64,000 nucleotides of DNA, from the NCBI GenBank assembly GCA_009845855.1, contig VXYT01000112.1:8472-72471 (forward strand). The letters are read 5' to 3'. The notes below the pieces were generated by a model. It had not been told where the DNA came from and searched no databases. It was given only the letters and a program-made list of their open reading frames with translations. Positions 7,411 through 42,727 of the stretch are shown in pieces. Origin of the DNA: Candidatus Palauibacter ramosifaciens. GTDB taxonomy: Bacteria > Gemmatimonadota > Gemmatimonadetes > Palauibacterales > Palauibacteraceae. Made by a program: the position numbers and the translations under genes. Within the stretch, counting starts at the first letter, position 1. Each line of letters begins with the position of its first letter.

Positions 7411-8076
7411 ATGGGGACGTCTTTGGCGGAGGAAACGCGAACGCGCAGCGGATCGCAGGGCGACGCGGCCGGTCCCGGTTCCGGACCTGTCGAGCCGCCG
7501 GATCCCGGCGCGGACGAACCCGGCCTCGTGGAAGCCGTGCAGGCCGGCGACTCGCAGGCGTTTTCCCTGTTCGTGACGAGATACACGGACCCGGCCTACG
7601 CCGTGGCGCTGTCGATTCTGCGGCACGAGCAGGACGCGGAAGATGCGGTGCAGGCCGCTTTCATTCGCGCGCTCGAGCGGATCGGGCAGTTGCGGCCGGG
7701 AAGCCGTTTCGGCCCGTGGTTCTATCGCGTGCTGAGGAGCACGTGCCTGAACCTCAGGCGACGCGAGTTGCTGCGGACCCATTCGGAGCTGAAGGACACT
7801 GCGGCGTCGCGGGACGACCCGCACCGGGAGTTCGAGCGGAAGTACGCCCGGCAGCGGGTGCTCGACGCGCTCGCGGAGCTTCCGGAACGACAGAGAACGG
7901 CGGTCATGATGTACGACCTCGAAGGGTACGACCACGCGGAGATCGCGGAGATCCTCGGGATCGCGGTCGGAACTTCCAGGGCCAACCTTCACCACGGCAG
8001 GCACGCGCTGCGCCGCCTGCTCGGCGAAGTGCCGGCGTCCGGCGCCGGAGGAACGGATGAGGATGGAGATGAATAG
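7411..8076 (+). CDS. ECF RNA polymerase sigma factor (second copy in the window)
   Basis: Shows ECF sigma region-2 and region-4 sequence: FSLFVTRYTDPAYAVALSILRHEQDAEDAVQAAFIRA and ...MMYDLEGYDHAEIAEILGIAVGTSRANLHHGRHALRR. Confidence 0.9.
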   Translation: MGTSLAEETRTRSGSQGDAAGPGSGPVEPPDPGADEPGLVEAVQAGDSQAFSLFVTRYTDPAYAVALSILRHEQDAEDAVQAAFIRALERIGQLRPGSRFGPWFYRVLRSTCLNLRRRELLRTHSELKDTAASRDDPHREFERKYARQRVLDALAELPERQRTAVMMYDLEGYDHAEIAEILGIAVGTSRANLHHGRHALRRLLGEVPASGAGGTDEDGDE

Positions 8077-8473
8077 AAGCGATCGGCATCGGCGTAGCGG
8101 GGGCGGGCCGGCGTGGGCGGCGTATCTCGAGCCCCTGCGGCCTGACGAACTCACGCGGCGGCGCCTGCGCCGGAACGTGATGGCGGCGGCGGAAGCGCTG
8201 CTCGAGCGGCGGCCGCTCTCGTGGCTCGACGTGACGGCAAGCTGGTCCGCGGCGCTTGCGCCGCTCGCAGCCGGGCTGCTCGTCGCAGCCGGGGTCCTGC
8301 TGTATCGCATCTCGGTGCCGGACGCGCCCGAGTTCGCCGCCGATCCGGACGTGGCGCCGGTCGGGCTTGTGCGCGCGTTGGCGCCGGACGCCGAAGCCCC
8401 GCCGGAGTTGCTCATCGACCTCGCCGAGCCCAGTCGCGACGCGGTGCTGACCGCCGCCCTCGTTAGTCCCTGA
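8057..8473 (+). CDS. putative membrane-anchored anti-sigma factor
   Basis: It overlaps the sigma gene's 3' end by 20 nt. It has a single TM segment (LAPLAAGLLVAAGVLLY) and a short periplasmic tail. Confidence 0.55.
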   Translation: MRMEMNRSDRHRRSGGGPAWAAYLEPLRPDELTRRRLRRNVMAAAEALLERRPLSWLDVTASWSAALAPLAAGLLVAAGVLLYRISVPDAPEFAADPDVAPVGLVRALAPDAEAPPELLIDLAEPSRDAVLTAALVSP

Positions 8474-8490
8474 AACGCGACACGAATCGG

Positions 8491-8955
8491 GTGCGTATGG
8501 ACACTTCGAGATTCCGGGCGATCCTTCTCCTGACGCTCGTGTTCGCGGCGGGCGCCGCGATCGGCGTAGCAGTGGACCGCCTCGATCTTCTTGCGGACGC
8601 GACCGCGGCCGACCCGCCTGTGGAGACCGTGTCGCCCGAAACGCCGGATCGCGATGGCGGGTCGCGGGGGGGACAGACCACGATCGAGCAGTTCGCCGAT
8701 GAACTGGGTCTGACGGCCGACCAGCGGTCGCAGATCGAGGGTTTCCTCGATCACTACCGCGACGGGATGCGGACGTTGCGCGGGGGCTACCGGACGTTGA
8801 TGGATTCGGTCCGGACCCGGATCGAGTCGGTGCTGACGGAGGAGCAGGGTGAGGATTATCGGGAGTTGCTGCGACAGCGCTACGGGGGCGGGCGGGAGCG
8901 CGGCGGCGAACGGGGATCATCCCAGGGGCGTGACGACGCGCAGCGAAACAACTGA
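8491..8955 (+). CDS. periplasmic LTXXQ-motif protein (CpxP/Spy/ZraP family, stress chaperone/sensor-like)
   Basis: Has a signal peptide/TM (ILLLTLVFAAGAAIGVAV). The LTXXQ motif occurs twice: LGLTADQRSQIEGFLDHYRD and VLTEEQGEDYRELL. Confidence 0.6.
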   Translation: MRMDTSRFRAILLLTLVFAAGAAIGVAVDRLDLLADATAADPPVETVSPETPDRDGGSRGGQTTIEQFADELGLTADQRSQIEGFLDHYRDGMRTLRGGYRTLMDSVRTRIESVLTEEQGEDYRELLRQRYGGGRERGGERGSSQGRDDAQRNN

Positions 8956-8999
8956 CAACCCAGAGACGTCAATCCGCCCCTCGGGGAGCAAGGAAAACG

Positions 9000-10358
9000 A
9001 TGACCATTCGACATAGATGTGGGTACGGAGACCGGCCGAGCGCCGGTCTTCGTCGATGGGGGTTCGTCCTGCTGCCGGCGCTTCTGCTCGCGGGAGCGTC
9101 GCCCCGGATGGCCGAGGCGCAGGTGCAGGCGAGCGGCAACGTCCGCCAAATCACGGTCGACGAAGCCGTCGAGATCGCGCTCCGCCGCAACCCCGGGTTG
9201 CTCCAGGCCTACTCCGCGATCGAGATGGCCGAGCACAACCGGCTGAGCGCGTACGGGACGCTCCTCCCGGGGGTGAACGCCTTCTTCAGCTACTCGAACT
9301 CGTCTACCGGTCGCCTCGACGCGCTCAGCCAGGGGATCGTCGCGACGAGTTACTCCACGCGGCTCCAGGCCAACTACACGCTGTTCGACGGATGGGGGCG
9401 TTTCACGAACCTGAAGAGCGCCCGGCTCGGGGTCGTCGAGCAGAACGCCCGCTATCGCGAGGCCGAGTTCCAGGTCATTCAGCAGGTGAAACAGGCCTAC
9501 GCGGAGAACGTCGCGGCGCTCGAACTCGTGGCGGTGGAGGAACGCCGCGTCCAGCGGCAGGCGGACCAGCTCGAGTTCGTCCGGCAGCAGTTGGAACTGG
9601 GACGGGCCACGCGCTCGGACTCGCTCCGCTCGCAGGTCGATCTCAACAATGCGCAACTCGCACTTCTGAACGCGCAGAACAACGCGCGTACGCGGACCTT
9701 CGAACTCACCGAGGTCATCGGCTCCGAGACCCTCGTGGGGCCGACCGCGGAGGCGGAACTCGCGATGGCCGCGATCCCCTTCTCCCGCGACGAGCTGTTC
9801 GCGATGGCCGATGTGACGGCTCCCGCCCTGGAGGCGGCCTCCCTGGCCGTCGAAGCCGCCGAGGCAGCGGTGTCCGGCGCACGCTCCAGTTACCTGCCCA
9901 CGATCTCGATCGGCGCCGGCTACGGGTGGGCGAATCAGGAGTTCCCGCCCTCCAACCGCTCCTGGTCGGTCGGGGTCTCCGGCAGCTATCCCCTCTTCAA
10001 CGGCTTCCAGCGCGAGACGCAGGTGTTCCGCGCCCGGGCCGCCGCCGATCAGGCCCGGCAAAACGAACGGGCGGCGCGACTCAACCTCAGTTCGCTGCTC
10101 GACGCACGATACGCGACAGCGCAGTCGGCGCTCGCGAGCGTCGACCTCGCGGAGAGGAACGTCGAACTCAGCGAGGAGAGCCTCCGGGTCGTACAGGAGC
10201 GCTACCAGCTCGGCCTCGCCACGATTCTTGAGCTCCAGGACGCGCAGATCACGCTCACGCAGGCGGAGGTCGATCTGGTCCGCAATCGGTTCCTGTACGA
10301 GGCATCGGTCGCGGGGATCGAGGCCCTCCTTGGCCGGAGGCTCGACCAGCAACCCTAG
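9000..10358 (+). CDS. TolC-family outer membrane efflux protein
   Basis: Has a signal peptide and two repeated alpha-helical/beta halves typical of the outer membrane factor family, e.g. QAYSAIEMAEHNRLSAYGTLLPGVNAFFSYSNSSTGRLD and FNGFQRETQVFRARAAADQARQ. Confidence 0.85.
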   Translation: MTIRHRCGYGDRPSAGLRRWGFVLLPALLLAGASPRMAEAQVQASGNVRQITVDEAVEIALRRNPGLLQAYSAIEMAEHNRLSAYGTLLPGVNAFFSYSNSSTGRLDALSQGIVATSYSTRLQANYTLFDGWGRFTNLKSARLGVVEQNARYREAEFQVIQQVKQAYAENVAALELVAVEERRVQRQADQLEFVRQQLELGRATRSDSLRSQVDLNNAQLALLNAQNNARTRTFELTEVIGSETLVGPTAEAELAMAAIPFSRDELFAMADVTAPALEAASLAVEAAEAAVSGARSSYLPTISIGAGYGWANQEFPPSNRSWSVGVSGSYPLFNGFQRETQVFRARAAADQARQNERAARLNLSSLLDARYATAQSALASVDLAERNVELSEESLRVVQERYQLGLATILELQDAQITLTQAEVDLVRNRFLYEASVAGIEALLGRRLDQQP

Positions 10359-10412
10359 CACCCGCATGTAGTATCTCTTCAACGTCGGCCCCGCGCGGAG
10401 TGTCCTCTGAGC

Positions 10413-11954
10413 GTGCCATGGTGGGCGCTGTTTCGGCGCCCCGATCGTCCGTTCAAGGACCCGACACGAGACGAGATGCCGATGTCCATATTCGAACGCT
10501 GCAGGCGTCGCTTCCCCCGGCGAGGCGGGGCCTTGGGCCCTGCCGCGATCTTCACGACGCTTGGACTCGCGGCCGCGGGCTGTGCGACCGGCGAGGCCAA
10601 CGAGCCCGAGCAGACCCTCCAGACGCTGACCGCGGGGCACCAGACCATCGTCTCCAGCGTGGAGGCGACCGGCACGGTCGAACCGATCCGCGTGATCGAG
10701 GTCAAGTCGCAGGCGGGCGGCGAGGTCCTCGAACTGCCCGTCGAACTCGGCGACAACGTCGAACAGGGGACGCTCCTCGTGCGGATCGACCCGCGCGATG
10801 TGAACAACGCTCACGCCCAGGCCCAGGCCGATCTCGACGTCGCGGAGGCGCAGAACGACGTTGCCGAACGCCAGCTCGAACGGGTCGAGGCGCTTCACGA
10901 GTCCGACATCGTGACCTCCGAGGAACTGGAGAGCGCGATCCTCTCCGCGGCGAACGCGAGGGCTTCCCTCGTCCGCGCCACGACCAACCTCGAACTTGCC
11001 GAGGACAAGCTGGACGACGTGACGCTCCGGGCCCCCATCACCGGAACCGTCGTGGAACGGACGGTGGAGCAGGGGCAGGTCGTCACGGGGACGCGCGACC
11101 TCACCGGCGGCACGGTGCTGATGCGAATGGCCGACCTCACCGAGGTCCAGGTGCGCATGCTCGTCGACGAGACGGACATCGGCCGGCTCCAGCCCGGACT
11201 CCCGGCGGATATCACCGTCGAAGCGTACCCCAACCGGACCTTCCGGGGGGCCGTTCTCAAGATCGAACCGCAGGCGGTCGTCGAGCAGAACGTGACCATG
11301 TTCGCCGTGCTCACGCGCATCTCCAACGAAGAGGATCTGCTGCGGCCGGGGATGAACGCGGACGTCGAGGTCGTGATCGGGCGCCAGGAGGATGTGCTGG
11401 CGGTGGCGAACAGCGGGATCAAGACGCAGCAGGAGGCCCTGCAGATCGTCCGGGCGCTCGAAATCGACGCCGATGTCAACGCGCTGCTGCGCGACTTCCA
11501 GAGCCAGGATCGGCCGGACGGTGCGGCGCAGGGGGATGGAGCGGCGGAGGGCGAGGAGGAGGCGATGATCGGCGGGGTTCCGATGTCGGAGTTCCAGTCG
11601 ATGTCGCAGGCGGAGCGGATGCGGGTCATCCAGAACCTGTCGGACGACGAGCGGCGGCAGATGATGCAGCAGTTCCGGAACCGCGGAGGAGGCGGACCCG
11701 GAGGCGGCCGAGACGCCGCCGCGCGGCGGCCCGACGAGCCCCGCCCGGCCTTCGTGTTCAGGTACGATGCGAGCGGCCTCCTCGACCTGAAGCCGGTCAT
11801 GATCGGCCTCAGCGACTTCGATCACACGCAGATCATCCGGGGGCTCGAGGAAGGCGAGGAGATCGTCGCCGTTCCCACCTCGCTCATCGCGCAGCAGGAG
11901 TTCCTGGACCGGATCCGCAGCCGCACGGCGCTGCCGGGCATCGGCGGAAGGTGA
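10413..11954 (+). CDS. efflux periplasmic adaptor (membrane fusion protein, HlyD/MacA-like lipoprotein) with a ~120 aa acidic/Gly-rich insertion
   Basis: Lipobox LGLAAAGCA. It contains the coiled-coil hairpin, lipoyl and beta-barrel segments, and the C-terminal MP domain (PAFVFRYDASGLLDLKPVMIGLSDFDHTQIIRGLEEGEEIVAV). The likely true start is an internal ATG near 10479-10485. Confidence 0.85.
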   Translation: MPWWALFRRPDRPFKDPTRDEMPMSIFERCRRRFPRRGGALGPAAIFTTLGLAAAGCATGEANEPEQTLQTLTAGHQTIVSSVEATGTVEPIRVIEVKSQAGGEVLELPVELGDNVEQGTLLVRIDPRDVNNAHAQAQADLDVAEAQNDVAERQLERVEALHESDIVTSEELESAILSAANARASLVRATTNLELAEDKLDDVTLRAPITGTVVERTVEQGQVVTGTRDLTGGTVLMRMADLTEVQVRMLVDETDIGRLQPGLPADITVEAYPNRTFRGAVLKIEPQAVVEQNVTMFAVLTRISNEEDLLRPGMNADVEVVIGRQEDVLAVANSGIKTQQEALQIVRALEIDADVNALLRDFQSQDRPDGAAQGDGAAEGEEEAMIGGVPMSEFQSMSQAERMRVIQNLSDDERRQMMQQFRNRGGGGPGGGRDAAARRPDEPRPAFVFRYDASGLLDLKPVMIGLSDFDHTQIIRGLEEGEEIVAVPTSLIAQQEFLDRIRSRTALPGIGGR

Positions 11955-11964
11955 TGATGGTTCG

Positions 11965-13176
11965 ATGATCTTCTTCGAGATTCTCCGGGTCGCCATGGAC
12001 GCGATCCGCGCCAACAAGCTGCGCTCGTTCCTGACCATGCTCGGGATCGTGATCGGGGTCGGGGCCGTGATCACGATGGTCGCGCTCGGGGAGGGGGCCC
12101 AGCAGCAGGTCGAGAACCAGATCGAGTCGCTCGGCACCAACGTGCTCACGGTTCGCGCCGGGCAGGGCATGTTCCGCGGCGTGCGCGGAGGGTCGAACGC
12201 CCGGTTGACGACGGAGGACGTCGAGGCGGTGCGGCGCGGGGCCCCGGCGCTGGTGGAGGTCGCGCCGGAGATGCAGGGGCAGTTGCAGGTCCAGTTCGGG
12301 CGCAACAACGCCAACGTTCGAATTCTCGGGACGACGCCGAACTACCTGGCGGTCGAGAACCACACCCTCGAGCTCGGCCGCTTCTTCGACGAGTCGGAGA
12401 ACCGCGGCCGGAGGCGGGTCGCCGTGCTCGGGGGCGCGGTCCCGGCCGTCCTGAACGCCGAAACCGCCGAACTCGTCGGCCGGACGATCTCGATCCGGAA
12501 CATCTCCTTCGAGGTCGTCGGAGTGCTGGAGGAAAAGGGCGGATCGGGCTGGTTCAACCAGGACGAGCAGATCTTCGTCCCCCTGGAGACGGCGCAGTTC
12601 CGGTTGCTCGGGACCGACCGCGTGAGCCAGTTCAAGGTCGTCGTCGAGAGCGAGGCGGCGATCCCGGTCGCGATGGTGCAGATCGAGGAAGTGCTCCGGC
12701 GCGAGCACCGCATTCCCCTGGGGCGGGAGAACGACTTCTGGATCTCGGACAGCGTGCAGTTCCTCGAAATGGCGCAGGAGACGACGCAGACGTTCACGAT
12801 GCTGCTCGCCGGCATCGCCGCGGTCAGCCTCCTCGTCGGCGGCATCGGGATCATGAACATCATGCTGGTGTCGGTCACGGAGCGAACGAAGGAGATCGGC
12901 GTGCGCAAGGCGCTCGGCGCCACGAGGAGCGCGATCCTGCTCCAGTTTCTGCTCGAAGCCACGACGCTCTGCATGACGGGCGGCATCCTCGGAGTCGCTT
13001 TCGCGTACGGCGCGGCCGAGATGCTCTCGCGGTCGGCGGGCTGGACGATGGCCATCGCGCCGCAGGCCATCGGCCTCGCGGTGGTCTTCGCTGCCGCGGT
13101 GGGCATGTTCTTCGGCCTCTGGCCCGCCCGGCGGGCGGCCCGGCTCGATCCGATCGTGGCGCTCCGGTACGAATAG
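11965..13176 (+). CDS. MacB/FtsX-type ABC transporter permease (stand-alone, no fused ATPase)
   Basis: Begins MIFFEILRVAMDAIRANKLRSFLTMLGIVIGVGAVITMVALGEG, as MacB-type permeases do. It has four TM helices and a large periplasmic domain. No Walker motifs are present. Confidence 0.85.
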   Translation: MIFFEILRVAMDAIRANKLRSFLTMLGIVIGVGAVITMVALGEGAQQQVENQIESLGTNVLTVRAGQGMFRGVRGGSNARLTTEDVEAVRRGAPALVEVAPEMQGQLQVQFGRNNANVRILGTTPNYLAVENHTLELGRFFDESENRGRRRVAVLGGAVPAVLNAETAELVGRTISIRNISFEVVGVLEEKGGSGWFNQDEQIFVPLETAQFRLLGTDRVSQFKVVVESEAAIPVAMVQIEEVLRREHRIPLGRENDFWISDSVQFLEMAQETTQTFTMLLAGIAAVSLLVGGIGIMNIMLVSVTERTKEIGVRKALGATRSAILLQFLLEATTLCMTGGILGVAFAYGAAEMLSRSAGWTMAIAPQAIGLAVVFAAAVGMFFGLWPARRAARLDPIVALRYE

Positions 13177-13183
13177 GCTGCGA

Positions 13184-13729
13184 ATGGCGGGACGTCGCGG
13201 GCCGATGTATGGTCCCGGCATGAGTGTTCCGCTGACATCCCTTCCGGATTCCGCCCGCGTCTGGATCTACGGGACGGATCGTCCGCTGACTCCCGAGGAG
13301 CGCGACGCGCTGATGGTCGACCTGCGCGCCTTCGTCGACATCTGGACCGCGCACGGGGCCGCGCTCCGGGCGGGCGTGGACTGGGTCGAAGACCGGTTCG
13401 CGGTCGTCGCCGTCGACGAAGCCTCGGCTCCTGCGTCCGGGTGCTCGATCGACGCGATGGCCCGGCGGCTGGGCGCGCTCGAGGAACGACTGGGTTGCTC
13501 GCTTCTCGACAGCACGCGCGTGTTCTACCGGGACGAGTCCGGCGCGATCGAGAGTTGCGCGCGGGCGGAGTTCCGGGCGCGGGCGACGACAGGAGCGATC
13601 AGCGACGCGACCCCCGTCTTCGATCCCACCATCGACACGCTGGCGGCACTGCGCGCGGGCGAACTCGAGCGGCCCGTCGCCCGTTCGTGGCACCGGCAAC
13701 TCCTGAGCCGCCCCGGCGGACGGTCCTGA
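13184..13729 (+). CDS. hypothetical protein (family not recognised), co-transcribed between the permease and patatin genes
   Basis: 181 aa ORF, 8 bp after the permease stop and 14 bp before the patatin start. The likely start is an internal ATG at 13220. Confidence 0.45.
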   Translation: MAGRRGPMYGPGMSVPLTSLPDSARVWIYGTDRPLTPEERDALMVDLRAFVDIWTAHGAALRAGVDWVEDRFAVVAVDEASAPASGCSIDAMARRLGALEERLGCSLLDSTRVFYRDESGAIESCARAEFRARATTGAISDATPVFDPTIDTLAALRAGELERPVARSWHRQLLSRPGGRS

Positions 13730-13742
13730 CGCGGGGACCGGC

Positions 13743-14903
13743 GTGACGGGGGGGCCGGGGAGCGGCGCTTCCGGCGCCGCGCGGGGGAAGCTGGCCTTCG
13801 CCCTCTCAGGCGGCGGCGCGCGGGCCGCCTACCAGACGGGCGTGCTGAGCCATATCGGCAAGCGGCTGCCCGGGCTTCGGGTCCCTCTCCTCACAGGCGT
13901 CTCGGCAGGCGCGATCAACGTGGGTTTTCTCGCCGCCTATGACGGAAATCTACGCGGCGCGACGCAGGCGCTGAAGCGCCGCTGGCTCTCGCTCACGACG
14001 GAGGAGGTGCTGCGCACCAACCCCGCTTCCCTGCTGAAGGTCGGCGTGCGACTCGGGGGATCCCTTCTAGGCGGCGGCACCGGGCTGAGCCCCCGTTTCC
14101 GAAGCCTCGTCGACACGTCACCGCTACGGGAGTTCATCGAACGCGACGTCGACCGCGGAGAGATCGGGAGCCGGATCGAGGCAGGGGACCTCGAGGCGGT
14201 CGGGCTCACCGCGATGTCCTACCAGACGGGGCGCACGGTCCTCTTCGTACAGGGAGACCCACAATCGGCGCCGAGGCCCGCGAGCTCGCACTACCGACTC
14301 GTGCGGACGGACATTTCGGTGGACCACATCCTGGCCTCCGCGTCGATTCCGCTCGTGTTCCCGGCCGTCAAGCTCGGGCAGCAGTATTACGGAGACGGGA
14401 GCTTCCGCACCGCCGCCCCGCTGGCGCCCGCGATTCACATGGGGGCGGACCGCATCTTCACGATCTCGGCCCGCTATCGGCGGTCCGAGCTGGAGGCGCG
14501 CGCGCCGGACACGACCGGATATCCGCCGCCGGCGAGAGTCCTGGGCCTGCTGCTAAATTCGGTGTTCCTCGACACGCTGGACTGGGATGCGGCCGCGCTG
14601 CGCAGGATCAACCTCCTCGTCGGCCGACTCCCCCCCGAAGTTTCCGAGCGCCAGGGGCTGCGTCACGTCGACCTGCTCATCCTGAGACCCTCCCGGGATA
14701 TCGGGAAGCTGGCGCGCGACTTCGAGATCGAACTTCCTCCGGCGCTGAGGTTCCTCGTGCGCGGCCTGGGCACGCCGGACATCAAGACGGCCGACTTCGT
14801 GAGTTATCTCCTGTTCGAGAGCGAGTACATCCGGACGCTCGTGGAACTGGGAGTCTCGGATGCCGAGGTGAACTGGGACCGCATCGAGGCGTTCCTCACC
14901 TGA
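13743..14903 (+). CDS. patatin-like phospholipase
   Basis: Carries the oxyanion motif ALSGGGARAAYQTGVL and the serine hydrolase motif GVSAGAIN (GxSxG). A catalytic Asp lies in the DGS/DGG region. Confidence 0.85.
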   Translation: MTGGPGSGASGAARGKLAFALSGGGARAAYQTGVLSHIGKRLPGLRVPLLTGVSAGAINVGFLAAYDGNLRGATQALKRRWLSLTTEEVLRTNPASLLKVGVRLGGSLLGGGTGLSPRFRSLVDTSPLREFIERDVDRGEIGSRIEAGDLEAVGLTAMSYQTGRTVLFVQGDPQSAPRPASSHYRLVRTDISVDHILASASIPLVFPAVKLGQQYYGDGSFRTAAPLAPAIHMGADRIFTISARYRRSELEARAPDTTGYPPPARVLGLLLNSVFLDTLDWDAAALRRINLLVGRLPPEVSERQGLRHVDLLILRPSRDIGKLARDFEIELPPALRFLVRGLGTPDIKTADFVSYLLFESEYIRTLVELGVSDAEVNWDRIEAFLT

Positions 14904-16021
14904 CTGAGCAACGGACGATCGTCCACTTCGCCGACCTCCACCTCGACTCCCCGTTCGCGTGGTGCGAGGCGACGGGCGACGTAGCGCGGAGGCGTCGCGA
15001 AGCGCTTCGCGACACCCTGCTCGCGATCGTGGACCTCGTGCGTTCGTCCGGCGCGGACGCGCTCTTCTGCGGAGGCGATCTGTACGAGCACGACCGCGTC
15101 ACGCTGGACACGGCGGACTTCCTGCGGCAGACCTTCGCCTCCCTCGACCCGGTGCCGGTCTACATCGCGCCCGGCAATCACGACTGGTACGGGCCGACGA
15201 GCGTCTACGCGACGGGGGGCTGGAGCGGGAACGTCCACATTTTTCGGGATGCGGCGCTGCGGGCGGTCTCCCTCGCGCCGGGCATCACGCTGTGGGGCGC
15301 CGCGCACTGCGCTCCCGCCAACACGGACAATTTCCTCGGCGACGGCTTCCGGATCTCCGGCGAGGGGGCGCACGTGGCGCTCTTTCACGGAGCGGAACGG
15401 TCGTGGCTCGCGGCACAGGGCGAAGGCAAGGCGCCGCACGCTCGCTTCGAGACCGCGGAAATCCCGGACAGCGGGCTGGATCACGCCTTTCTAGGCCACT
15501 ATCACCGGCCGGCGGACGGCGCGCATCACACGTATCCGGGCAATCCCGACCCGCTGCAGTTCGGAGAGGAAGGGGAGCGCGGGCCCGTCGTGGCGACGAT
15601 CGACGCGACGGGCGAGGTCACGCGGGAGCGCCACGTCGTCGCGGTCACGCCAGTGTACGACCTGCGGCTCGATGTCACGGGCCTCACGAGTCGCCAGCAG
15701 ATTCGGGACGCCCTGCGCGCGATGACGGAGAGCCTCGCGGGACTCGCGCGTCTCACGGTGTCCGGCGACCTGGAGCCGTCGCTCGACCTCCAGGAGAACG
15801 CGATCCGCGAGCAGTTGCTCGACACGTTCGACGCCGTGCAGATCCGGAAAACCGATTTGCACCTTGCCTACGACCTCGACGAGATCCGCGGCGAGCCCAC
15901 GGTGCGGGGGCGGTTCGTCGACGATGTGCTGGGAGCGGGGTTGCCGGACGATGAGGAGCGCCGTGTCCTGCGGATGGGACTCCGGGCTCTCGACGGACGC
16001 GACGATCTCGAGGTGCTGTAA
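14900..16021 (+). CDS. sbcD: SbcD/Mre11-like metallophosphoesterase nuclease (start non-canonical: CTG at 14900 overlapping the patatin TGA as CTGA; first in-frame GTG only at 15029)
   Basis: The in-frame translation upstream of 15029 reads LTEQRTIVHFADLHLDSPFAW...GGDLYEH.... This holds the conserved motif I (DxH) and motif II (GDL) of calcineurin-like phosphoesterases. GNHDW and GHYH come later. No ATG, GTG or TTG lies between the in-frame stop at 14870-14872 and motif I. Confidence 0.8.
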   Translation: MTEQRTIVHFADLHLDSPFAWCEATGDVARRRREALRDTLLAIVDLVRSSGADALFCGGDLYEHDRVTLDTADFLRQTFASLDPVPVYIAPGNHDWYGPTSVYATGGWSGNVHIFRDAALRAVSLAPGITLWGAAHCAPANTDNFLGDGFRISGEGAHVALFHGAERSWLAAQGEGKAPHARFETAEIPDSGLDHAFLGHYHRPADGAHHTYPGNPDPLQFGEEGERGPVVATIDATGEVTRERHVVAVTPVYDLRLDVTGLTSRQQIRDALRAMTESLAGLARLTVSGDLEPSLDLQENAIREQLLDTFDAVQIRKTDLHLAYDLDEIRGEPTVRGRFVDDVLGAGLPDDEERRVLRMGLRALDGRDDLEVL

Positions 16022-18912
16022 TGCGTTTCGAGTCGGTGACGGCCCACCGCTTCGGCCCCTTCCGCGACGAGACGCTGGAACTGGCGCCGGGCATGAACGT
16101 CGTCTTCGGCCGCAACGAGGCGGGCAAGTCGTCCTGGCACGCCGCGCTCTATGCCGGGCTCTGCGGCATTCGGCGCGGCAAGGGGGCGATCCGGAAGGAG
16201 GAAAGGCGGTTCGCGGAGCGCCACAGGCCGTGGGACGGCGACGAGTGGGAGATCGGGGCCATCGTCGCCCTCGAGGACGGACGGCGCGTGGAGTTGCGGC
16301 ACGACCTGGCGGGAAGGGTCGAGAGTTCGGCGGAGGACACGAGCGTCGCCAGACGGGACTATTCGGGCGAGATCCTGTTCGACGGGGCGCCGGACGGCTC
16401 GCGGTGGCTGGGTCTGAATCGCCGCTCGTTCCTCGCCACCGCCTGTGTGCGCCAGGCGGACATTCTCAAGGTCCGGGACGATCCCGAATCGCTGCAGGAA
16501 GACATGCAGCGCGCCGCGGCGACGGCCGGTGTGGACCAGACGGCGGCTGCCGCGCTGCAGCGGCTCGAGGAGGTGCTCCGGGAACGCGTTGGGTCGACCC
16601 GGGCTCCGACGAAGCCTCTCATGACGACCGCGCGGCGGGTAGCGGAGTCGCGAGAGGCGCTGGAGGCGGCCCGCGAGGCGCAGCGGGACTTCCAGGAGCG
16701 TCGCGCCGAGGTGGAAACTCTGGAACAGGCGGCGAGGGACGCCCGGCGGCGCGTGGAGGCAGCGGCGGCCGCGCTCGCGAGCGCGGAGGCGGAGGCGCTC
16801 GCGGAGCGGCTGCGGGAGGCGCGGGCCCTGCACGAGGAGTTCCCCGAGGGGGCGCCGCACCCGGTCCCCGAGGGCGGTGGGCTGACGAGAGCGGTCACCG
16901 AAGCGCTCACCACGTGGCGCAACCTCCCGGCTCCGGTGGAGCTGACCGGGCCCTCGGCGCGCGAGATCGGGGCGAGGATCGAGGGGGTCGATACGGAGCT
17001 GGCGGCCGCGCGGGCGGTCATCGCGGAGGCCGCCGCGGCGGACGCCGAGGCTCGCCTCGCCAGCGTGCATGAGCTGCATGCGCTCTTCCCGGACGGCGGC
17101 CCCCGGGTCTCCCCGGAGGAGGACGCACGCATGGGGGAGATCCGCGATGCACTGCGCGCCTGGGAGTCGCTTCCCGCAGTTGAAGCGCCGATCGGCCGGA
17201 GCGTGGAGGAGCTCGAGGAAGAGCTGGCCAACCTCGAAGAGAGACGGCGGGCGCCCCTCACGGAAGGTCCGGCCGCGCGACCCGCAATGTGGCTGGCTCT
17301 TTCGGCGGTCGTGGCGGCAGGGGGCCTCGTCCTCGCCCTGCTGGCGCCCGATTCGGGTTCCGCGGGGCTCATCCTGTTCGCCGTCGGGGCGGCGGGTGTC
17401 CTGTCCCACAGGTTCGCGAGGACACGCTCCGACCGCTCGGAGATCGCGCTCGCCCTGGACGTGCGCCACGACAGTCTCCGGCGCGAACTCGCGTCGGCGC
17501 GCGCGGAGCATGAGCGCTACGAGGACGGGCGCCGGCATCGGCGCGAGGCGATCGGCCGCATGCGCGAGCTTGCCGATCCGGAGACCGCGGCGACCGCCGA
17601 CCCGGAAACGCTCGCGGACGCCCTGCGCCGCGAGGTGGCGTCCCTGCAGGCCGGACGAGAAAAGGCCGGGCAGCTGGGCTCGCAGTGGGACGAGCTCAAG
17701 GGGTTGCTGGCCGGCTCGTCCTTCGACGCGCTTGTCGCCGAGACGGATCGGCGGCGCGAGGCGGCTGACGTCCTTGTCGCGGATGTGGCCGAGGCCGCGC
17801 TCGCGGACGCGAGGGCGCGGGGCATTACGCGGGGAGAGTTGGACGAACTCGAACGGCGGGCCGCGGAGCGACGTCGAACGTGGAGCGACGAGCGGGCCCG
17901 GCGCCTGGCGGCGGAGACGCGCGACGCACAGCGGTCGGAACGTGCCGCCGATGCCGCGAACAAGCTGCGCGAAGCCGGCGCGCAGGTCGGCGTGACCGCC
18001 GAAGATCCCGAGGATCTGGCTGCCGCACTGGAGCAATGGCGCGCCGGCCGGGAGCGGGTGCTCGACGAAGCCGGCGAGCGCAACGAGTCATGGGATCGCC
18101 TGCAACAGTTGCTTGGCGAGCGGACGCTGGAGGCGTTCGCGGACGATGTGGAGCGACTCCGCCTCCGGGCCGCCCGGCTCCTCGCCCGCAGCGGAGCGGA
18201 CGTTGACGAGGCTCGGGCGAGACGGGTCACCGAGGCGACGCTGGAGGATCTGAAGGGAGAAGCGGAGGCGGCCCGCGAGGAGGTGCTGCGCGCGGGCGGC
18301 CAGCTCACCGAGCGCGAACATCACCTCCCCAGCGTCGCGGACGCGGAGGACGCGCTGGCAGCGGCCGAACGTGAACAGGCGAGGATCGCACGTCTCAAGG
18401 ACACGCTGGACTGCACGATCGGGTTCCTCGAAGAGGCGCAGGAGCGCGTGCTGCGCGACATCGCGCCCATCCTCAGGCGGACCGTGCTCGAATGGCTGCC
18501 CGGGGTGACGGACGGCCGCTACACGGGATGCCGCATCGACCCGGAGAATCTGCTCGTGGAGGTCCGGGCGCCGGGCGGGCGCTGGCGGCCCGCCGAACTG
18601 CTCTCCCATGGCACGGCGGAGCAGATCTACCTGCTGCTCAGGTTCGCACTCTCACGGCACCTCACGCGCGAAGGCGAATCCTGTCCGCTCATCCTGGATG
18701 ATGTCGTCGCCGCTTCCGACGCGGCACGGAAACGGGCAGTACTGCAGACGCTGTACGCACTCTCGCGCTCGACGCAGATCATCCTCTTCACGCACGAGGA
18801 TGATGTGCGGGACTGGGCAACGGACCACCTCGCGGAACCCGACGGCCGCCTCATCGAACTCGGCGGACGGCGCGTCGAGAGTGAAGGAAACGGGCTGGCC
18901 GCCGCTACTTGA
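16021..18912 (+). CDS. sbcC: SbcC/Rad50-like SMC-type ATPase (YhaN-like: Walker A, long coiled coils, internal TM hairpin, no CxxC zinc hook)
   Basis: TAATG overlap with sbcD. Walker A is GRNEAGKSS. The ABC signature LSHGTAEQ, Walker B/D-loop LILDDVVAASD and H-loop FTHED sit at the C-terminus. The central ~800 aa are Ala/Glu/Arg-rich coiled coil. Two hydrophobic helices (PAMWLALSAVVAAGGLVLALLAP...LILFAVGAAGVLS) interrupt it. Confidence 0.8.
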   Translation: MRFESVTAHRFGPFRDETLELAPGMNVVFGRNEAGKSSWHAALYAGLCGIRRGKGAIRKEERRFAERHRPWDGDEWEIGAIVALEDGRRVELRHDLAGRVESSAEDTSVARRDYSGEILFDGAPDGSRWLGLNRRSFLATACVRQADILKVRDDPESLQEDMQRAAATAGVDQTAAAALQRLEEVLRERVGSTRAPTKPLMTTARRVAESREALEAAREAQRDFQERRAEVETLEQAARDARRRVEAAAAALASAEAEALAERLREARALHEEFPEGAPHPVPEGGGLTRAVTEALTTWRNLPAPVELTGPSAREIGARIEGVDTELAAARAVIAEAAAADAEARLASVHELHALFPDGGPRVSPEEDARMGEIRDALRAWESLPAVEAPIGRSVEELEEELANLEERRRAPLTEGPAARPAMWLALSAVVAAGGLVLALLAPDSGSAGLILFAVGAAGVLSHRFARTRSDRSEIALALDVRHDSLRRELASARAEHERYEDGRRHRREAIGRMRELADPETAATADPETLADALRREVASLQAGREKAGQLGSQWDELKGLLAGSSFDALVAETDRRREAADVLVADVAEAALADARARGITRGELDELERRAAERRRTWSDERARRLAAETRDAQRSERAADAANKLREAGAQVGVTAEDPEDLAAALEQWRAGRERVLDEAGERNESWDRLQQLLGERTLEAFADDVERLRLRAARLLARSGADVDEARARRVTEATLEDLKGEAEAAREEVLRAGGQLTEREHHLPSVADAEDALAAAEREQARIARLKDTLDCTIGFLEEAQERVLRDIAPILRRTVLEWLPGVTDGRYTGCRIDPENLLVEVRAPGGRWRPAELLSHGTAEQIYLLLRFALSRHLTREGESCPLILDDVVAASDAARKRAVLQTLYALSRSTQIILFTHEDDVRDWATDHLAEPDGRLIELGGRRVESEGNGLAAAT

Positions 18913-19912
18913 AGACCTTGTAGTCGGTCGAGTGGCCCGGGTTCACCTTCGCGGTCGGGTCGATGTGGTGGACCGCGTTGTTCACGGCGATCGCGGCCTC
19001 TCCGAAACCGGTCGAGATCAGTTCCAGCTTCCCGTCGTAGGTGGCGATGTCCCCTGCCGCATAGACGCCGGGGATGTTCGTGCGCATGCGCGAGTCCACC
19101 TCGATGCACCTCTTCCGCAGCTCGAGCCCCCATTCGGCGATCGGCCCGATGTTCGGAACGAAACCTATCAGAGCGATGATGCCGTCCACCTCGATTCGCT
19201 CCGTTTCCTTCGTCTTCGTGTGCCGGATCGTCGCGGCCTCCACCCGCTCGCCGCCGTGAATCTCCGTTACGGTGTGGAACGTTCGGAGCCGCAGTTCTCC
19301 GCGTTCATGCGCTCCCTCCACCTGGGCGACCGTGCTCTCGTGGGCCCGATAGCGGTCGGTCCGGTGAATATGTGTGAGCTCTCCGGCGATGTTCCGCAGC
19401 GCCCAACTCCAGTCGAAGGCGGAGTCGCCCCCGCCGACAAGAAGGACGCGTTTCCCGCGGAACACTTCCGGGTCCTTCACGTTCGTCGCGAGGCCCCGGT
19501 TCAGGAACTCATCCCAGCCCGGCACGCGCAGAGTGCGGCTCTTGAAGGCGCCCTTACCCCCCGCAATGACGACGGTGCGCGTGGGCCGCGGACCCTTGTC
19601 CGTGCGAAGATCGAAGCAGCCGTTTCCCGGATTGAGTTCGAGGACGCGCTCCTCTAGACAGACCTGCGCGTCGAACTGCAGACCCTGCGTGACGAGTTCC
19701 CGCGCCAGATCCTTGGCCAGCACCCGGGGGAAACCGGCGACGTCGAACACGTCCTTCTCCGGGTACAGCGCCGTAAGCTGACCCCCTAGTTCGGGAAGGA
19801 CATCGATGATGCGGGCCGACGCACCGCGCATACCGGCGTAGAAGGACCCGTAGAGGCCGGTCGGACCGCCTCCGATGATGGTAATGTCGACTGTTTCTTC
19901 TTTCACGCCCAA
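18905..19912 (-). CDS. ferredoxin--NADP+ reductase (thioredoxin-reductase-like, YumC type)
   Basis: N-terminus EETVDITIIGGGPTGLYGSFYAGMRGASARIIDVLPELGGQLTALYPEKDVFDVAGFP has the FAD-binding GGGPTG motif. A second NAD(P)-binding motif is VLLVGGGDSAFDW. It ends convergently, overlapping sbcC by 8 nt. Confidence 0.9.
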   Translation of the reverse strand: MGVKEETVDITIIGGGPTGLYGSFYAGMRGASARIIDVLPELGGQLTALYPEKDVFDVAGFPRVLAKDLARELVTQGLQFDAQVCLEERVLELNPGNGCFDLRTDKGPRPTRTVVIAGGKGAFKSRTLRVPGWDEFLNRGLATNVKDPEVFRGKRVLLVGGGDSAFDWSWALRNIAGELTHIHRTDRYRAHESTVAQVEGAHERGELRLRTFHTVTEIHGGERVEAATIRHTKTKETERIEVDGIIALIGFVPNIGPIAEWGLELRKRCIEVDSRMRTNIPGVYAAGDIATYDGKLELISTGFGEAAIAVNNAVHHIDPTAKVNPGHSTDYKVFK

Positions 19913-31089: not shown

Positions 31090-32819
31090 GCGAGCAAGGA
31101 TCCGGCCCGACGGCGCCGGACTCGATCTCCTCAAGCACCGAGGAGGGGCGGCAGTACCGCGGGGGCGTGTACCAACCGCTCGACGAGACCGCCCTCCCCG
31201 ACGCGCCCGACACCGAGGCGTTCCCCGACCGCGGTCACGGCCGACCGTTCAAGTTCGTCCGCCGCATGTCGCGGGTACCGCGCCTCAGGCACATCATCGG
31301 TCCGTCGGTCATCGCGCTCGGCATGGGTCTGGGAAGCGGCGAGTTCCTCCTCTGGCCCAACCTCGTGGCGGCCAACGGGTTCTCGATCTGGTGGCTGTTC
31401 TGGATCGGCGTCGTGACCCAGTTCGTCGTCATCGGCGAGATCGAACGCTGGACCATCGCCACCGGCGAGTCGACATTCGCCGGCATGGCGCGGCTCGACC
31501 GGCTGGGGTTCTGGCCCTGGCTCTTCCTGGTCGCGACGCTGGCCAGCTTCTTTTGGCCCGGGTGGGCGTCTCAGTCCGCCGAATTGGTGGGTCAGATCGT
31601 GGTCCTCGTCGGAGGGCCGCAGATCCAGTGGCAACCGATGGCGCTGCTCATGCTCGCCTGCATCTGGTTCGGGCTCGCGGTCTCCCGGATCGTCTACAAT
31701 GTCCTGGAGCGCTGCGAGATCGCGCTGGTGGCCGGGTTCTTCCCTCTTCTCGCGATTACGCTTCTCGTGGTCGGTCTCGTTCCGTCCCATCTCCTCGAAC
31801 TGGCGATCGGCGCCGTCTCGTTCGGGAGCGCCCCGGCCGAACTGTTCACCGGGGATCAGTTTCCGACGCTGATCCTCGCGGTCGCGTATGCCGGCACCGG
31901 GGGTACGCTGCTCCTCGCACAGTCGCTGTGGCTGCGCGACAAGGGCTTCGGGATGGCGCGGTTCCAGGGGCGGATCGCCGGCATCCGCGGACGCAATGAG
32001 GACATCAGCACGACGGGGTTCGTCTTCGACACGAACGACCCGACCCAGCTCGGGCGTTTCCGGGGATGGATGCGGGTTGTCCACCAGGAGCTGCTCGTCA
32101 CCTTCGTTGTCCTGACTCTCCTGAGCGTCGTCATCACGTGCATGCTCGTCGCGGCGACGCTTGGGACGGACAGCCCGGAGATCGCGGGCGATCTGACTGC
32201 CATGGTGACGCTGCAGGGCGAGGCGATCGAACGTGTCGGCGGGCTATGGCTGCGCGTCGCGTTCCTGCTCGGGGGATCGTTCGTCATCTTTTCGACCCAG
32301 CTTGCGATCCTCGACACCGTCACTCGCATCACGGGCTGCATCTTCTTCGAACGTTTCGGATACCGGACCCGCTTCTTCACGCAGAAACGCACGTTTCTGG
32401 TGTTTCTCACGATCTTCGTGCTGGCGGCGATGGGGATCATCACCGCGTCGTGGATCGGCGGGGAGGCGCTGGATGTGCTTCAGCCCGATTTCCTGCTCCT
32501 CATCGCCGGCCCGTTCACGATGTCCAGCATGTTCCTGTTCACGCTCGTCATCGGCTACATGAACGTGCGCCGGCTGCCGGCCGAGCTGGGGCCTCCGACC
32601 TGGAAGCGGTGGAGTCTGCTCTGGGCTGCGGTGCTGTGGGGATGGTTCACGGCCGAACAGCTCTCGCGAACCACGATGCTCGTCACCGGAGTGGCGCCGC
32701 AGTTCCAGGAGTCCCTGGCGCTCCACCCGATCCGCATCGTGCTCTACGCGCTGTGGCTGGGGTCGCTCGTGTGGTTCGCCGCGCGCACCCTTCCGGGACG
32801 GGCGCCGCGCGGGGTGTAG
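31086..32819 (+). CDS. polytopic membrane protein, putative transporter (distant Nramp-like; family uncertain)
   Basis: About 11-12 predicted TM helices after a 60-aa cytoplasmic N-terminus. The TTG start at 31086 overlaps the lipoprotein stop (TTGA). An alternative start is the ATG at 31266. Confidence 0.55.
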   Translation: MSEQGSGPTAPDSISSSTEEGRQYRGGVYQPLDETALPDAPDTEAFPDRGHGRPFKFVRRMSRVPRLRHIIGPSVIALGMGLGSGEFLLWPNLVAANGFSIWWLFWIGVVTQFVVIGEIERWTIATGESTFAGMARLDRLGFWPWLFLVATLASFFWPGWASQSAELVGQIVVLVGGPQIQWQPMALLMLACIWFGLAVSRIVYNVLERCEIALVAGFFPLLAITLLVVGLVPSHLLELAIGAVSFGSAPAELFTGDQFPTLILAVAYAGTGGTLLLAQSLWLRDKGFGMARFQGRIAGIRGRNEDISTTGFVFDTNDPTQLGRFRGWMRVVHQELLVTFVVLTLLSVVITCMLVAATLGTDSPEIAGDLTAMVTLQGEAIERVGGLWLRVAFLLGGSFVIFSTQLAILDTVTRITGCIFFERFGYRTRFFTQKRTFLVFLTIFVLAAMGIITASWIGGEALDVLQPDFLLLIAGPFTMSSMFLFTLVIGYMNVRRLPAELGPPTWKRWSLLWAAVLWGWFTAEQLSRTTMLVTGVAPQFQESLALHPIRIVLYALWLGSLVWFAARTLPGRAPRGV

Positions 32820-32868
32820 TGAGGGGTGCAGTAACGGGAAGGGACGGATCGACGCCGCGGGTCGCCCG

Positions 32869-33852
32869 CTACGCCGTGGGTGCCGGCACCGCCTCCGCCA
32901 TCTTTCCGGACATCTCCTCCGCGCTCTTCATCTGCGAGAGATCGAGCGTGAAGTCCGGCCGTTCCACCGGAGACAGCTTGTTCAGCAGTTCCCGGATCTC
33001 TCGGGGCGCCAGACCGGCCGCCCCGAGATCCTCCTTCGTCGCGATCCCTTCGGCGCAGATCGATTCCGACTCGGCGTCCACCCGCAGCAGGCTTCGCAGC
33101 ACCTCGAGTTCCCCCGCGCTCAGCCGCGCCCCCAGCACCTCGTAGTCGACCCAGGCCTCGTAGCTGAGCGGGGCGACCCGCTGGAGCATCCCGGCCATCA
33201 CCCGGCCATACTCCTGGATTTCCCACTGAGCGTGCGAGTCCACCCGCAGCCGCAGGAAGTGGAGGAGGTTGTGCAGGTCGATCTTCCAGTACCACTGCGT
33301 ATAGGTGGAGAGGGGAAGGTCGATCCGCGCGAGTTCCCGGGCGACATCCTCGGACAGCAGCCAGCCGTAGGAATCGGCCGCTTCCGCGCGCAGCTGATCC
33401 CAGCGGTCGATCGCGTTGCGGTAGAGGTCGTCCGGGGCGGGATCCGTCTCCCGGCCCTGGTTGTTCAGGCGACTCTGATAGGCGAACTGCTCGTGGTTCG
33501 GCCGGTAGAACAGCAGCGGCAGGAGGCTGTAGCGGGCGCTGAGTTCGTTGACGGAAGCCGTGCGGTGCCGGATCCACTGTCGCGCCACGAACATCGGCAT
33601 GGAGCAGTGGAACTTGAACTCGACCATCTCGCTCGGCGTCGTGTGGGCGTGGCGCCGCAGATACCGCACGAGGCCGCGCGTCTGGCTCACGCGGCGCGTG
33701 CCGGCCCCGTAGCTGACGCGAGCCGCTGCCTCCACATCGGCGTCTGAGCCCATGTAGTCGACGAGCGCGACGAATCCGTGGTCGAGGACGGGAAAATACC
33801 CGCCGAGAATCTCCTCGGCCGCGGGGACGGTCGGCCTCCTGGTCGTCTCCAT
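32869..33852 (-). CDS. thyX: FAD-dependent thymidylate synthase
   Basis: Carries the ThyX signature RHRTASVNELSARY (RHRxxSxNExSxRY) and the N-terminal YFPVLDHGFVALVDYMGSD. Confidence 0.9.
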   Translation of the reverse strand: METTRRPTVPAAEEILGGYFPVLDHGFVALVDYMGSDADVEAAARVSYGAGTRRVSQTRGLVRYLRRHAHTTPSEMVEFKFHCSMPMFVARQWIRHRTASVNELSARYSLLPLLFYRPNHEQFAYQSRLNNQGRETDPAPDDLYRNAIDRWDQLRAEAADSYGWLLSEDVARELARIDLPLSTYTQWYWKIDLHNLLHFLRLRVDSHAQWEIQEYGRVMAGMLQRVAPLSYEAWVDYEVLGARLSAGELEVLRSLLRVDAESESICAEGIATKEDLGAAGLAPREIRELLNKLSPVERPDFTLDLSQMKSAEEMSGKMAEAVPAPTA

Positions 33853-33893
33853 GGGCTACCCGTGCGCTACAGGGGGTGGTGTCGGGCAGAATA

Positions 33894-42187: not shown

Positions 42188-42727
42188 TCAGGGCCCAGCG
42201 TCCGGGAGCAGCGATGTCCTCCAGGCCTCCAGCTGCCTGATGGTATACTGTCGCCTGAGCGGTCGGCGCGGACGTACGCCGACACTCGTCGCCAGGGCCT
42301 CAAGCGAAACAACTCGATCGAGCCATCCGAGTGCGTGAGCCGCCGTTACTGCCGCCTTGTCGCAACTACACAGGATGAAGCCATCTGCCAGCATGTATGC
42401 CAACGCCAACAAGTCGCGCTCACCGGCGTCGAGGCGGTGGGCATCGGGGTACTGCAAACGAAAGGTGACGTCCGCTGCGCTGGACAGCGTTCTCACGGTG
42501 GCGCGGGCGATGTCCTGTTCGCGCACTGGGACGTACCCGCGCATGGAAGGATCGCCGCGCCGCAGTTCTTCCGCACACTCCTCGACTGTGACGATCTGTC
42601 TGCCACCGGCCACGGCGTTCCAGCAACCGGTATCCACCGCCTCGATGACGATCATGGTGTCCACGAGTACGATGTCGTTCGGGGCGAAACCTACGGGTTC
42701 ACGCCTCGAAATACGTCTCGTGGCCAT
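42188..42727 (-). CDS. PIN-like small protein (DUF4411-like) coupled to the upstream XRE/ImmA gene; candidate toxin/nuclease partner
   Basis: Its first 29 nt overlap the upstream gene's 3' end. N-terminus NDIVLVDTMIVIEAVDTGCWNAVAGG resembles the PIN/DUF4411 start, with acidic residues positioned as in PIN folds. Confidence 0.45.
   Translation of the reverse strand: MATRRISRREPVGFAPNDIVLVDTMIVIEAVDTGCWNAVAGGRQIVTVEECAEELRRGDPSMRGYVPVREQDIARATVRTLSSAADVTFRLQYPDAHRLDAGERDLLALAYMLADGFILCSCDKAAVTAAHALGWLDRVVSLEALATSVGVRPRRPLRRQYTIRQLEAWRTSLLPDAGP

Follow-up and report, generated by a model that had tools for sequence, protein, structure and literature searches.

Do four genes that share one strand and overlap at their stop and start codons form a single functional module, or have separate units come to lie side by side? 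The question is raised by a 64,000-nucleotide stretch of Candidatus Palauibacter ramosifaciens DNA, referred to here as the window (GenBank assembly GCA_009845855.1, contig VXYT01000112.1, positions 8,472 to 72,471 of the forward strand), in which four co-directional open reading frames (ORFs) form the 3' end of an 11.5-kb string with every gene on the + strand (7411-18912). They encode a small protein of 169 aa with no assigned function (13220-13729), a 386-aa patatin-like phospholipase (13743-14903; Pfam PF01734, 8.9e-25), a metallophosphoesterase of about 373 aa from the Mre11/SbcD family (14900-16021; Pfam Metallophos, 8.2e-14) and a 963-aa ATPase of the structural maintenance of chromosomes (SMC) type, an ATP-binding cassette (ABC) protein that resembles Rad50 and SbcC (16021-18912; Pfam AAA_27, AAA_23 and SMC_N). 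We refer to the last two as the nuclease and the ATPase, and to the pair as the cassette.

An initial annotation of this DNA had recognized patatin, SbcD/Mre11-like and SMC/Rad50-like domains, and these calls were borne out by Pfam and, for the nuclease, by matches to Thermotoga maritima Mre11/SbcD in PDB and to an SbcD-like family in PHROG. In its fullest form, its proposal amounts to one functional module wired to an envelope-stress regulon, in which the patatin would act as the effector and the nuclease/SMC pair would serve as a sensor or a second effector. Tight packing and stop/start overlaps can make a lineage-specific, accidental juxtaposition resemble a module, and comparative synteny separates the two. 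From such a comparison we favor, with moderate confidence, a composite string: the small protein and patatin on one side and the nuclease and ATPase on the other, an evolutionary juxtaposition that would be transcribed as one unit in no lineage but Palauibacter.

Synteny divides the string into two units

We sought relatives of the ATPase in one genome per GTDB species, found 330, and fetched 78 loci (given L numbers below), each of which was searched for all eleven window proteins. The 11-gene order from the sigma factor gene to a thioredoxin-reductase-like (TrxR-like) gene was intact in 17 of the 17 distinct loci of the Palauibacter clade (L001 and L009-L025; L001 and L020 are one stretch). 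In every locus where both genes were readable (about 80), the nuclease gene lay directly upstream of the ATPase gene. Loci outside Palauibacter, which span Dehalococcoidia, other Chloroflexota, Vicinamibacterales, Caldilineaceae, Gammaproteobacteria and Acidimicrobiia, contained the nuclease-ATPase pair but never the patatin, the small protein or the efflux genes. When flanking ORFs were clustered all against all, no third partner gene conserved across phyla emerged, only synteny internal to lineages; a short form of the cassette, for its part, was syntenic in at least nine Vicinamibacterales. Because the pairing is invariant while linkage to the small protein and patatin is limited to the Palauibacter clade, the four genes are best described as two independent units.

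Two outgroup loci, L091 (patatin 76% identical) and L092 (48%), retain the series sigma factor, outer membrane efflux protein (OEP), membrane fusion protein (MFP), permease, small protein and patatin. In both, a metallophosphoesterase/SMC-like cassette adjoins the TrxR-like gene, as it does in Palauibacter. The L091 cassette is on the opposite strand and converges on the patatin gene, and in L092 four unrelated genes lie between cassette and patatin. The resident-type ATPase of L091 has no in-frame Walker A motif and its N-terminal part is split over two frames (L091 13200-13620, - strand), which would reflect decay into a pseudogene or else a fault in the assembly.

A single module would account for junctions of a 13-nt gap, a 4-nt overlap and a 1-nt overlap that are kept in all 17 distinct Palauibacter-clade loci, and for the loss of a GTG start in four species, which suggests that translation of the nuclease depends on ribosomes finishing the patatin. 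The conservation of the four-gene arrangement, which the initial annotation had proposed as a check, is complete within the clade and absent beyond it: loci of other genera never combine the pair with patatin or small protein, the outgroup cassettes converge on the patatin or are separated from it, and the small protein also stands by itself in unrelated contexts. The patatin is vertically inherited and fails both CBASS and PADLOC effector models. We regard the one-module reading as largely refuted by this synteny, and consider it very improbable. Patatin as effector of the nuclease/ATPase pair falls with it, given the synteny split and a score of 16 bits, against a cut-off of 200, on the CBASS lipase model.

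Co-expression is a separate matter. The initial annotation had argued for it from the packing, and on geometry alone it is likely that the four genes are co-expressed in this genome: the overlaps at the patatin-nuclease and nuclease-ATPase junctions are 4 nt and 1 nt, and no terminator-like site was found on the + strand between 13104 and 18912. Of the packing originally described, the CTGA and TAATG overlaps and a short gap before the patatin gene (13 nt) held up, while the 8-bp gap at the start of the small-protein gene is probably 43 nt.

The cassette as a probable xenologue in an older slot

The flanking genes of the cassette are 76-84% identical to those of L091. The nuclease, on the other hand, is only 27% identical to that of L091 and 29% to that of L092, whereas it is 60-66% identical to nucleases of other phyla (Dehalococcoidia, Vicinamibacterales and Gammaproteobacteria). 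Its closest non-syntenic relative is found in L089, with 76% identity for the nuclease and 57% for the ATPase. Flanks that are close to L091 around a nuclease that is closer to other phyla indicate a xenologous replacement in situ, and the pattern points to the Palauibacter cassette being a horizontally acquired xenologue that took the place of a resident cassette.

In the simplest reading, the slot between the patatin and the TrxR-like gene, together with a cassette in it, would be ancestral. The Palauibacter ancestor would then have replaced a distantly related resident cassette by a xenologue in the orientation of the patatin gene, and it is this orientation that would have created the stop/start overlap. 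The GC content of the cassette is not anomalous, so the replacement would be old. A search of the window for a further, resident-type cassette gave none. We also considered that Gemmatimonadota outside Palauibacter have no such pair, and rejected this because the corresponding slot of L091 and L092 is occupied by a distant paralogue.

The initial annotation had held that an ordinary housekeeping pair, a core gene with conserved synteny, would speak against its proposal. The outcome is mixed: conserved synteny in the genus and a core region are what a housekeeping gene would show, yet the cassette appears to have been acquired horizontally.

The cassette also occurs more than once in some genomes. 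On the Tepidiformaceae chromosome OZ253575.1, L033 and L052 (at 3.53 Mb and 2.71 Mb) are segments of at least 19 kb that are 97-99% identical, and in each the cassette is followed by a gene for a 1187-aa SF1 helicase (AAA_11/AAA_12) with an RNase_H_2 domain. This duplicated segment may be a multi-copy element. One Caldilineaceae genome holds diverged cassette paralogues.

The nuclease probably starts at a CTG codon

The nuclease motifs D12-x-H14, G59-D60, G92-N-H-D95, H163 and G199-H-Y-H202 are intact and invariant in the family alignment. No ATG, GTG or TTG lies upstream of motif I (D-x-H); the first canonical start is at 15029, and its use would remove that motif. The stop codon of the patatin gene (TGA, 14901-14903) is overlapped by a CTG at 14900, giving a 4-nt overlap (CTGA, 14900-14903) with a GAGG 10 nt upstream. 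The nuclease probably starts at this non-canonical codon.

We compared this region across the 17 distinct orthologous loci. The CTG position was conserved, with GTG in its place in L021. Two codons further on, 11 of the 17 carry a GTG; at this position the window reads GAG and three loci, L009, L017 and L022, read GCG (their start region is at 8880-8888, equivalent to 14900-14908 of the window). In the sub-clade without the canonical GTG the nuclease ORF is still 91-94% identical. That the ORF stays intact although its canonical start was lost implies that ribosomes either initiate at the CTG or re-initiate after terminating at the patatin stop. Both kinds of start are therefore plausible, and the CTGA junction is real, not a sequencing artefact.

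At the next junction (TAATG, 16019-16023), the nuclease stop (16019-16021) and the ATPase ATG (16021-16023) overlap by 1 nt, with a GAGG 7 nt upstream. Gene calls elsewhere place the end of the nuclease at the ATPase start in L001, L003, L005 and L090, and 4 nt short of it in L089.

The ATPase has Rad50-like heads and a predicted membrane hairpin

All the ATPase motifs are present: Walker A (GRNEAGKS, 16108-16131), the signature (LSHGTAEQ, 18601-18624, of the form S-x-G-T-x-x-Q), Walker B (LILDD, 18688-18702) and the H-loop (FTHE, 18787-18798). Sequence matches in PDB were to Rad50 heads, with which identity was 20-23% in structure alignments. In an AlphaFold2 model (pLDDT 79), an N-terminal head (1-190) and a C-terminal head (836-947) are joined by a broken coiled coil, and Foldseek matched the model to SMC5/6, Rad50, MukB, LmuB and JetC. 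Conserved motifs specific to the family occupy the head region at aa 60-210.

The midpoint of the coiled coil is where the protein departs from Rad50. A hydrophobic 19-mer (aa 423-441, Kyte-Doolittle 2.31) forms one strong segment, and AlphaFold2 places helices at aa 421-441 and 443-467 in the position of the Rad50 zinc hook. This predicted hairpin (17287-17421, + strand) lies in a region conserved in the family alignment, and in a Kyte-Doolittle scan of 78 homologues (600-976 aa) about 55 had a hydrophobic segment at the midpoint. The window ATPase has no CxxC zinc hook; two homologues contain a CxxC, its position in those proteins not having been checked. The apex may thus be inserted in the membrane, as we infer from the hydrophobicity and the modeled helices. 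The "membrane-anchored" ATPase of the initial annotation is accordingly upheld to the extent of a predicted membrane segment.

The coiled coil is interrupted by two FP-x-G-x-P breaks (16840-16863 and 17086-17106). In the N-terminal arm there are two units of about 80 aa, each ending in L-x-x-x-F-P-[ED]-G-x-P followed by "...AL..W..LP", and these are conserved across phyla. The repeated unit may be an elbow or a docking element.

The small protein and the patatin as the probable tail of the efflux operon

The small-protein ORF is open from 13184, which would give 181 aa. Homologues are mostly 160-175 aa long and tblastn matches in the orthologous loci start at Met-13 of this ORF, so that the start is most likely ATG 13220 rather than ATG 13184; the gap after the permease gene is then 43 nt, not 8 bp. 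The protein has a compact alpha/beta ferredoxin-like fold and an invariant G-C-S-I-D motif at aa 74-78, and the Pfam scan gave no family match. Its name in some entries of NCBI and UniRef, "ABC transporter ATPase", looks like a misnomer for a protein that has no P-loop or Walker A motif. Its conserved Cys-Ser-x-Asp could be catalytic. As mentioned above, it is also found by itself, in Gemmatimonas and other genomes.

The catalytic motifs of the patatin are intact, namely the oxyanion motif GGGAR (aa 23-27), GxSxG (G-V-S54-A-G, aa 52-56, with Ser54) and DGS at 218 (Asp218). Inspection by eye found no N-terminal hydrophobic stretch, which suggests a cytoplasmic enzyme. Homologues show a smooth range of identity from 97% to 48%, and those that are named are from Gemmatimonadota and labeled "NTE family / patatin-like". 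By this pattern the patatin is a Gemmatimonadota family passed on vertically together with the efflux operon. It scored 16.1 bits on the CBASS lipase model NF041079 (cut-off 200), and so did not qualify as a CapV equivalog, and only 14-15 bits on the PADLOC phospholipase effector profiles.

Taken together, the ferredoxin-fold protein and the patatin would be the native tail of an envelope-stress/efflux operon controlled by an extracytoplasmic function (ECF) sigma factor, with a putative role in membrane-lipid or envelope homeostasis.

The cassette in repair or in defense

If the nuclease and ATPase are a unit of their own, what do they do? In L042 (1275-12718), four genes on one strand run addB-addA-nuclease-ATPase, the AddB- and AddA-like genes lying directly upstream of the cassette. 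This layout is like that of the addB-addA-sbcD-sbcC operon of Bacillus subtilis. AddB/AddA-like genes are also near the cassette in L035, L049 and L061, and Mfd lies downstream of it in L072, L077 and L084. We consider it fairly probable that the cassette acts in repair or recombination.

Alternatively, the cassette could work alone against plasmids or phages and spread horizontally, with the patatin no more than a neighbor; a membrane-tethered Mre11/Rad50-like nuclease would then destroy linear or entering foreign DNA. Mobility is consistent with a nuclease identity of 60-76% across phyla, as against 27-29% to the syntenic Gemmatimonadota cassette, and with the two copies in the duplicated Tepidiformaceae segment and the diverged paralogues in one Caldilineaceae genome. 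Some of the settings are those of defense genes as well. L089 (1-22880) is a dense island of defense and toxin-antitoxin genes, with HipA, ParD/PIN, MmeI fragments, DUF4238, an SMEK_N protein with an unassigned 474-aa partner, and a type III restriction-modification (R-M) system. The neighbors in L005 include PIN, PemK, Uma2, DruA/transposase and PDDEXK_9 genes; L002 has DndB and a methylase, L003 RES-Xre, and L090 transposases, and in other loci type ISP and type I R-M genes and a Cas3-like gene are neighbors. The ATPase itself gave partial PADLOC matches to mad3 (5e-21) and LmuB (1e-13).

Several observations stand against such a system. The cassette is fixed and syntenic across the Palauibacter clade, as its short form is in Vicinamibacterales, and both of the outgroup loci, L091 and L092, have a cassette of some kind in the slot. 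Repair genes (AddAB-like and Mfd) neighbor cassettes about as often as defense genes do. Among 137 nearest-neighbor ORFs from about 54 non-redundant loci, an uncontrolled sample, five matched the generic mad3 profile and an estimated eight or so further ORFs matched other PADLOC models at E<=1e-8 (as judged from the top 25 of 45 families); for what such a sample is worth, this is far from a defense-island signature. Since the mad3 profile was built from HHpred-versus-PDB alignments, a match to it denotes a generic SMC head. At E<=1e-10 plasmids yielded no match to the ATPase, and the plasmid-type matches of the nuclease were only distant ones on chromids (about 26-30%), of which the one in Vescimonas has no adjacent ATPase. 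Nor is the cassette linked to a sensor, a methylase or any other component for telling self from non-self. A search of the literature on AAA_27/COG4717 and on membrane-anchored Rad50-like defense systems found nothing relevant. On balance we think a stand-alone defense role unlikely, if still worth bearing in mind.

It could be further speculated that mobile, membrane-tethered nucleases of the Mre11/Rad50-like kind make up an unrecognized class that guards the cell envelope against DNA arriving by phage injection, conjugation or transformation, and that the cassette is a member of it, captured here into an ECF envelope-stress operon and translationally coupled to a lipase. If this were true, envelope damage would induce efflux, lipid remodeling and an envelope-proximal nuclease together. 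We regard this as improbable.

A DNA-end-processing role is the reading that we develop further. The Mre11/SbcD-type nuclease and the Rad50/SbcC-like ABC ATPase with its predicted apical hydrophobic hairpin form an obligate two-gene cassette. The ATPase would dimerize via its cytoplasmic heads and bind a nuclease dimer as in Mre11-Rad50 and SbcCD, while its apex would be anchored in the inner membrane. Driven by ATP, the complex would then clamp DNA ends or hairpins and so permit the nuclease to cut. The outcome would be a membrane-tethered machine that processes DNA ends for double-strand-break repair or recombination, possibly acting also on DNA that enters through the membrane.

Chromosomal setting of the gene string

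The window has a G+C content of about 69%. A deposited protein from a Gemmatimonadales metagenome-assembled genome (MAG) is 100% identical to the ATPase, and its closest relatives are from Candidatus Palauibacter, a marine, sponge-associated group.

Upstream of the four genes, the string comprises an ECF sigma factor (7411-8076), a putative anti-sigma factor (8057-8473), an LTXXQ/CpxP-like protein (8491-8955), a TolC-like OEP (9000-10358), an HlyD-type MFP (10413-11954) and a MacB_PCD/FtsX permease (11965-13176), all on the + strand and annotated from Pfam. No ABC ATPase gene for the permease is present in the string, either in the window or in L001, L091 and L092, so that the ATPase partner of the efflux pump may be encoded elsewhere. 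The sole gene of the ABC_tran type that we noticed in the window encodes a fused exporter (54817-56652, - strand).

On its right the string meets the convergent gene for the TrxR-like flavoprotein (18905-19912, - strand; NCBIfam TRX_reduct, 6.5e-49, below cut-off), which marks the conserved right-hand edge of the slot in the Palauibacter loci, L091 and L092, all of them Gemmatimonadota. The ATPase stop (TGA, 18910-18912) and the TrxR-like stop (18905-18907, - strand) make the two genes overlap by 8 nt, leaving no space for a terminator between them. The flanks are core chromosome, with electron transfer flavoprotein (ETF) genes upstream and the TrxR-like gene, MlaD, Rho, GyrA, GyrB and RecF downstream, and across the Palauibacter clade the cassette locus sits between ETF and SSB/Rho/GyrA/GyrB/RecF. 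Rfam and tRNA scans of the window gave no matches.

Further features of the window include a 374-aa protein with fused HTH_3 and Peptidase_M78 domains (ImmA/IrrE-like; 42699-43823, - strand), encoded near the RecF and GyrB genes, and a 524-aa response-regulator receiver fused to a PglZ domain (56657-58231, - strand). Cumulative GC skew reaches its maximum at about 32000-34000; genes are mostly on the + strand to the left of this point and mostly on the - strand to the right, and the peak may merely track the coding strand.

Comparison with known systems

Scans of the four proteins against PADLOC, PHROG and NCBIfam gave no membership of a defense system. Lamassu- or Wadjet-like logic, which had been raised for the nuclease/ATPase pair, found no support. 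The ATPase belongs to the same SMC-like class as Lamassu LmuB and Wadjet JetC, as seen in its partial LmuB match in PADLOC and in the Foldseek matches to both, but its partner is an Mre11-type phosphoesterase, unlike in those systems. Lamassu was rejected because none of the other three proteins matched LmuA or LmuC in PADLOC and there is no conserved third gene. Similarly, the match to JetC was negligible for Wadjet (E 0.008) and JetA, JetB and JetD (the Toprim nuclease) were absent. MADS, an eight-gene operon that includes an N6-methyltransferase, a kinase and a specificity subunit, was represented by mad3 alone, matched through the C-terminal head, and the string has no methylase.

The patatin shares with the CapV effectors of CBASS the patatin fold, the Ser-Asp dyad and the oxyanion-hole motif. 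On the other hand, it scored below the CapV cut-off, and no cyclase or other signaling gene is found in the string. CBASS was rejected on that failure and on the lack of a linked CD-NTase. The protein is closer in type to housekeeping bacterial patatins (COG1752/RssA-like, "NTE family"), with which vertical inheritance alongside an efflux operon is in keeping.

Canonical SbcCD and Mre11-Rad50 are closer to the cassette. They share with it nuclease motifs I-V, intact Walker A, Walker B and signature motifs, an antiparallel coiled coil and coupled genes, and the order of nuclease before ATPase, the Mre11 motifs, the Rad50-type heads and the PHROG matches to SbcD-like and SbcC-like families would all be expected of an ordinary housekeeping nuclease for hairpins and palindromes. 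In contrast to these complexes, a predicted membrane hairpin replaces the zinc hook with its CxxC at the apex, and the coiled coil contains the two FP-x-G-x-P breaks. The SbcD model TIGR00619 gave 32.7 bits against a cut-off of 77.65, Rad50 equivalog models gave 20-34 bits against cut-offs of 700-1087 and matched the P-loop or the C-terminal head only, and the N-terminal head region has conserved motifs of its own. We therefore attach almost no probability to a canonical SbcCD, which the initial annotation had allowed for.

The closest parallel is the SbcF/SbcE pair (YhaO/YhaN) of B. subtilis, the fourth SMC-like system of Firmicutes, in which an sbcD-like gene lies beside an SMC-like gene of the 963-aa class (PMC2811018). 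SbcE has no CxxC and has a unique central domain, insoluble and hydrophobic in its first half; reported roles of SbcE and SbcF are in double-strand-break repair and transformation, and foci were seen at the poles of competent cells (PMC2811018). Our cassette has the same arrangement, with an SbcD-like gene adjoining the gene of an SMC-like ATPase of about 960 aa. The ATPase likewise has SbcC-like heads, no CxxC and a central hydrophobic domain between coiled-coil arms, an architecture that matches the two coiled-coil stretches of about 300 aa around the central domain of SbcE. A match to AAA_27, the YhaN-type N-terminal head domain, is above cut-off (39.4 bits, cut-off 22) but covers model positions 1-55 of 206 only. 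The differences are its occurrence in another phylum, its own conserved motifs in the head at aa 60-210, and the lack of a yhaM-like neighbor.

A number of points weigh against reading the cassette in this way. The likeness to YhaN/YhaO is one of architecture, as published for B. subtilis. The short AAA_27 match implies a divergent N-terminal head, and about 20 of the 78 ATPase homologues fall below the hydrophobicity threshold. A full-length AAA_27 ATPase of Rhizobium, encoded downstream of a "DNA repair exonuclease" gene, matches model positions 1-201 (214 bits); it has no hydrophobic midpoint, and hhalign aligned it with the window ATPase family at the C-terminal head only (96% probability). 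Cross-phylum transfer, two copies in some genomes and the defense-island settings of some relatives also fit an accessory or defense role. Moreover, in every Palauibacter species the nuclease is tightly coupled to the end of the patatin gene, which could mean a functional link that is real, if recent.

With these points set against the shared architecture, we still prefer, with moderate confidence, to see the nuclease and ATPase as an SbcEF-like pair, that is, as a little-studied but ordinary DNA-end-processing cassette and not as part of a new four-gene defense system. On this analogy, the hook-less, membrane-hairpin branch of Mre11/Rad50 proteins represented by SbcEF would reach past Firmicutes into Gemmatimonadota, Chloroflexota, Acidobacteriota and Gammaproteobacteria. 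It would also be a branch given to transfer from one phylum to another, and the names of many of the MAGs hint at a marine or sponge origin. Its natural length variants, from 600 to 976 aa, should be useful for asking what a Rad50-like machine with a membrane apex does.

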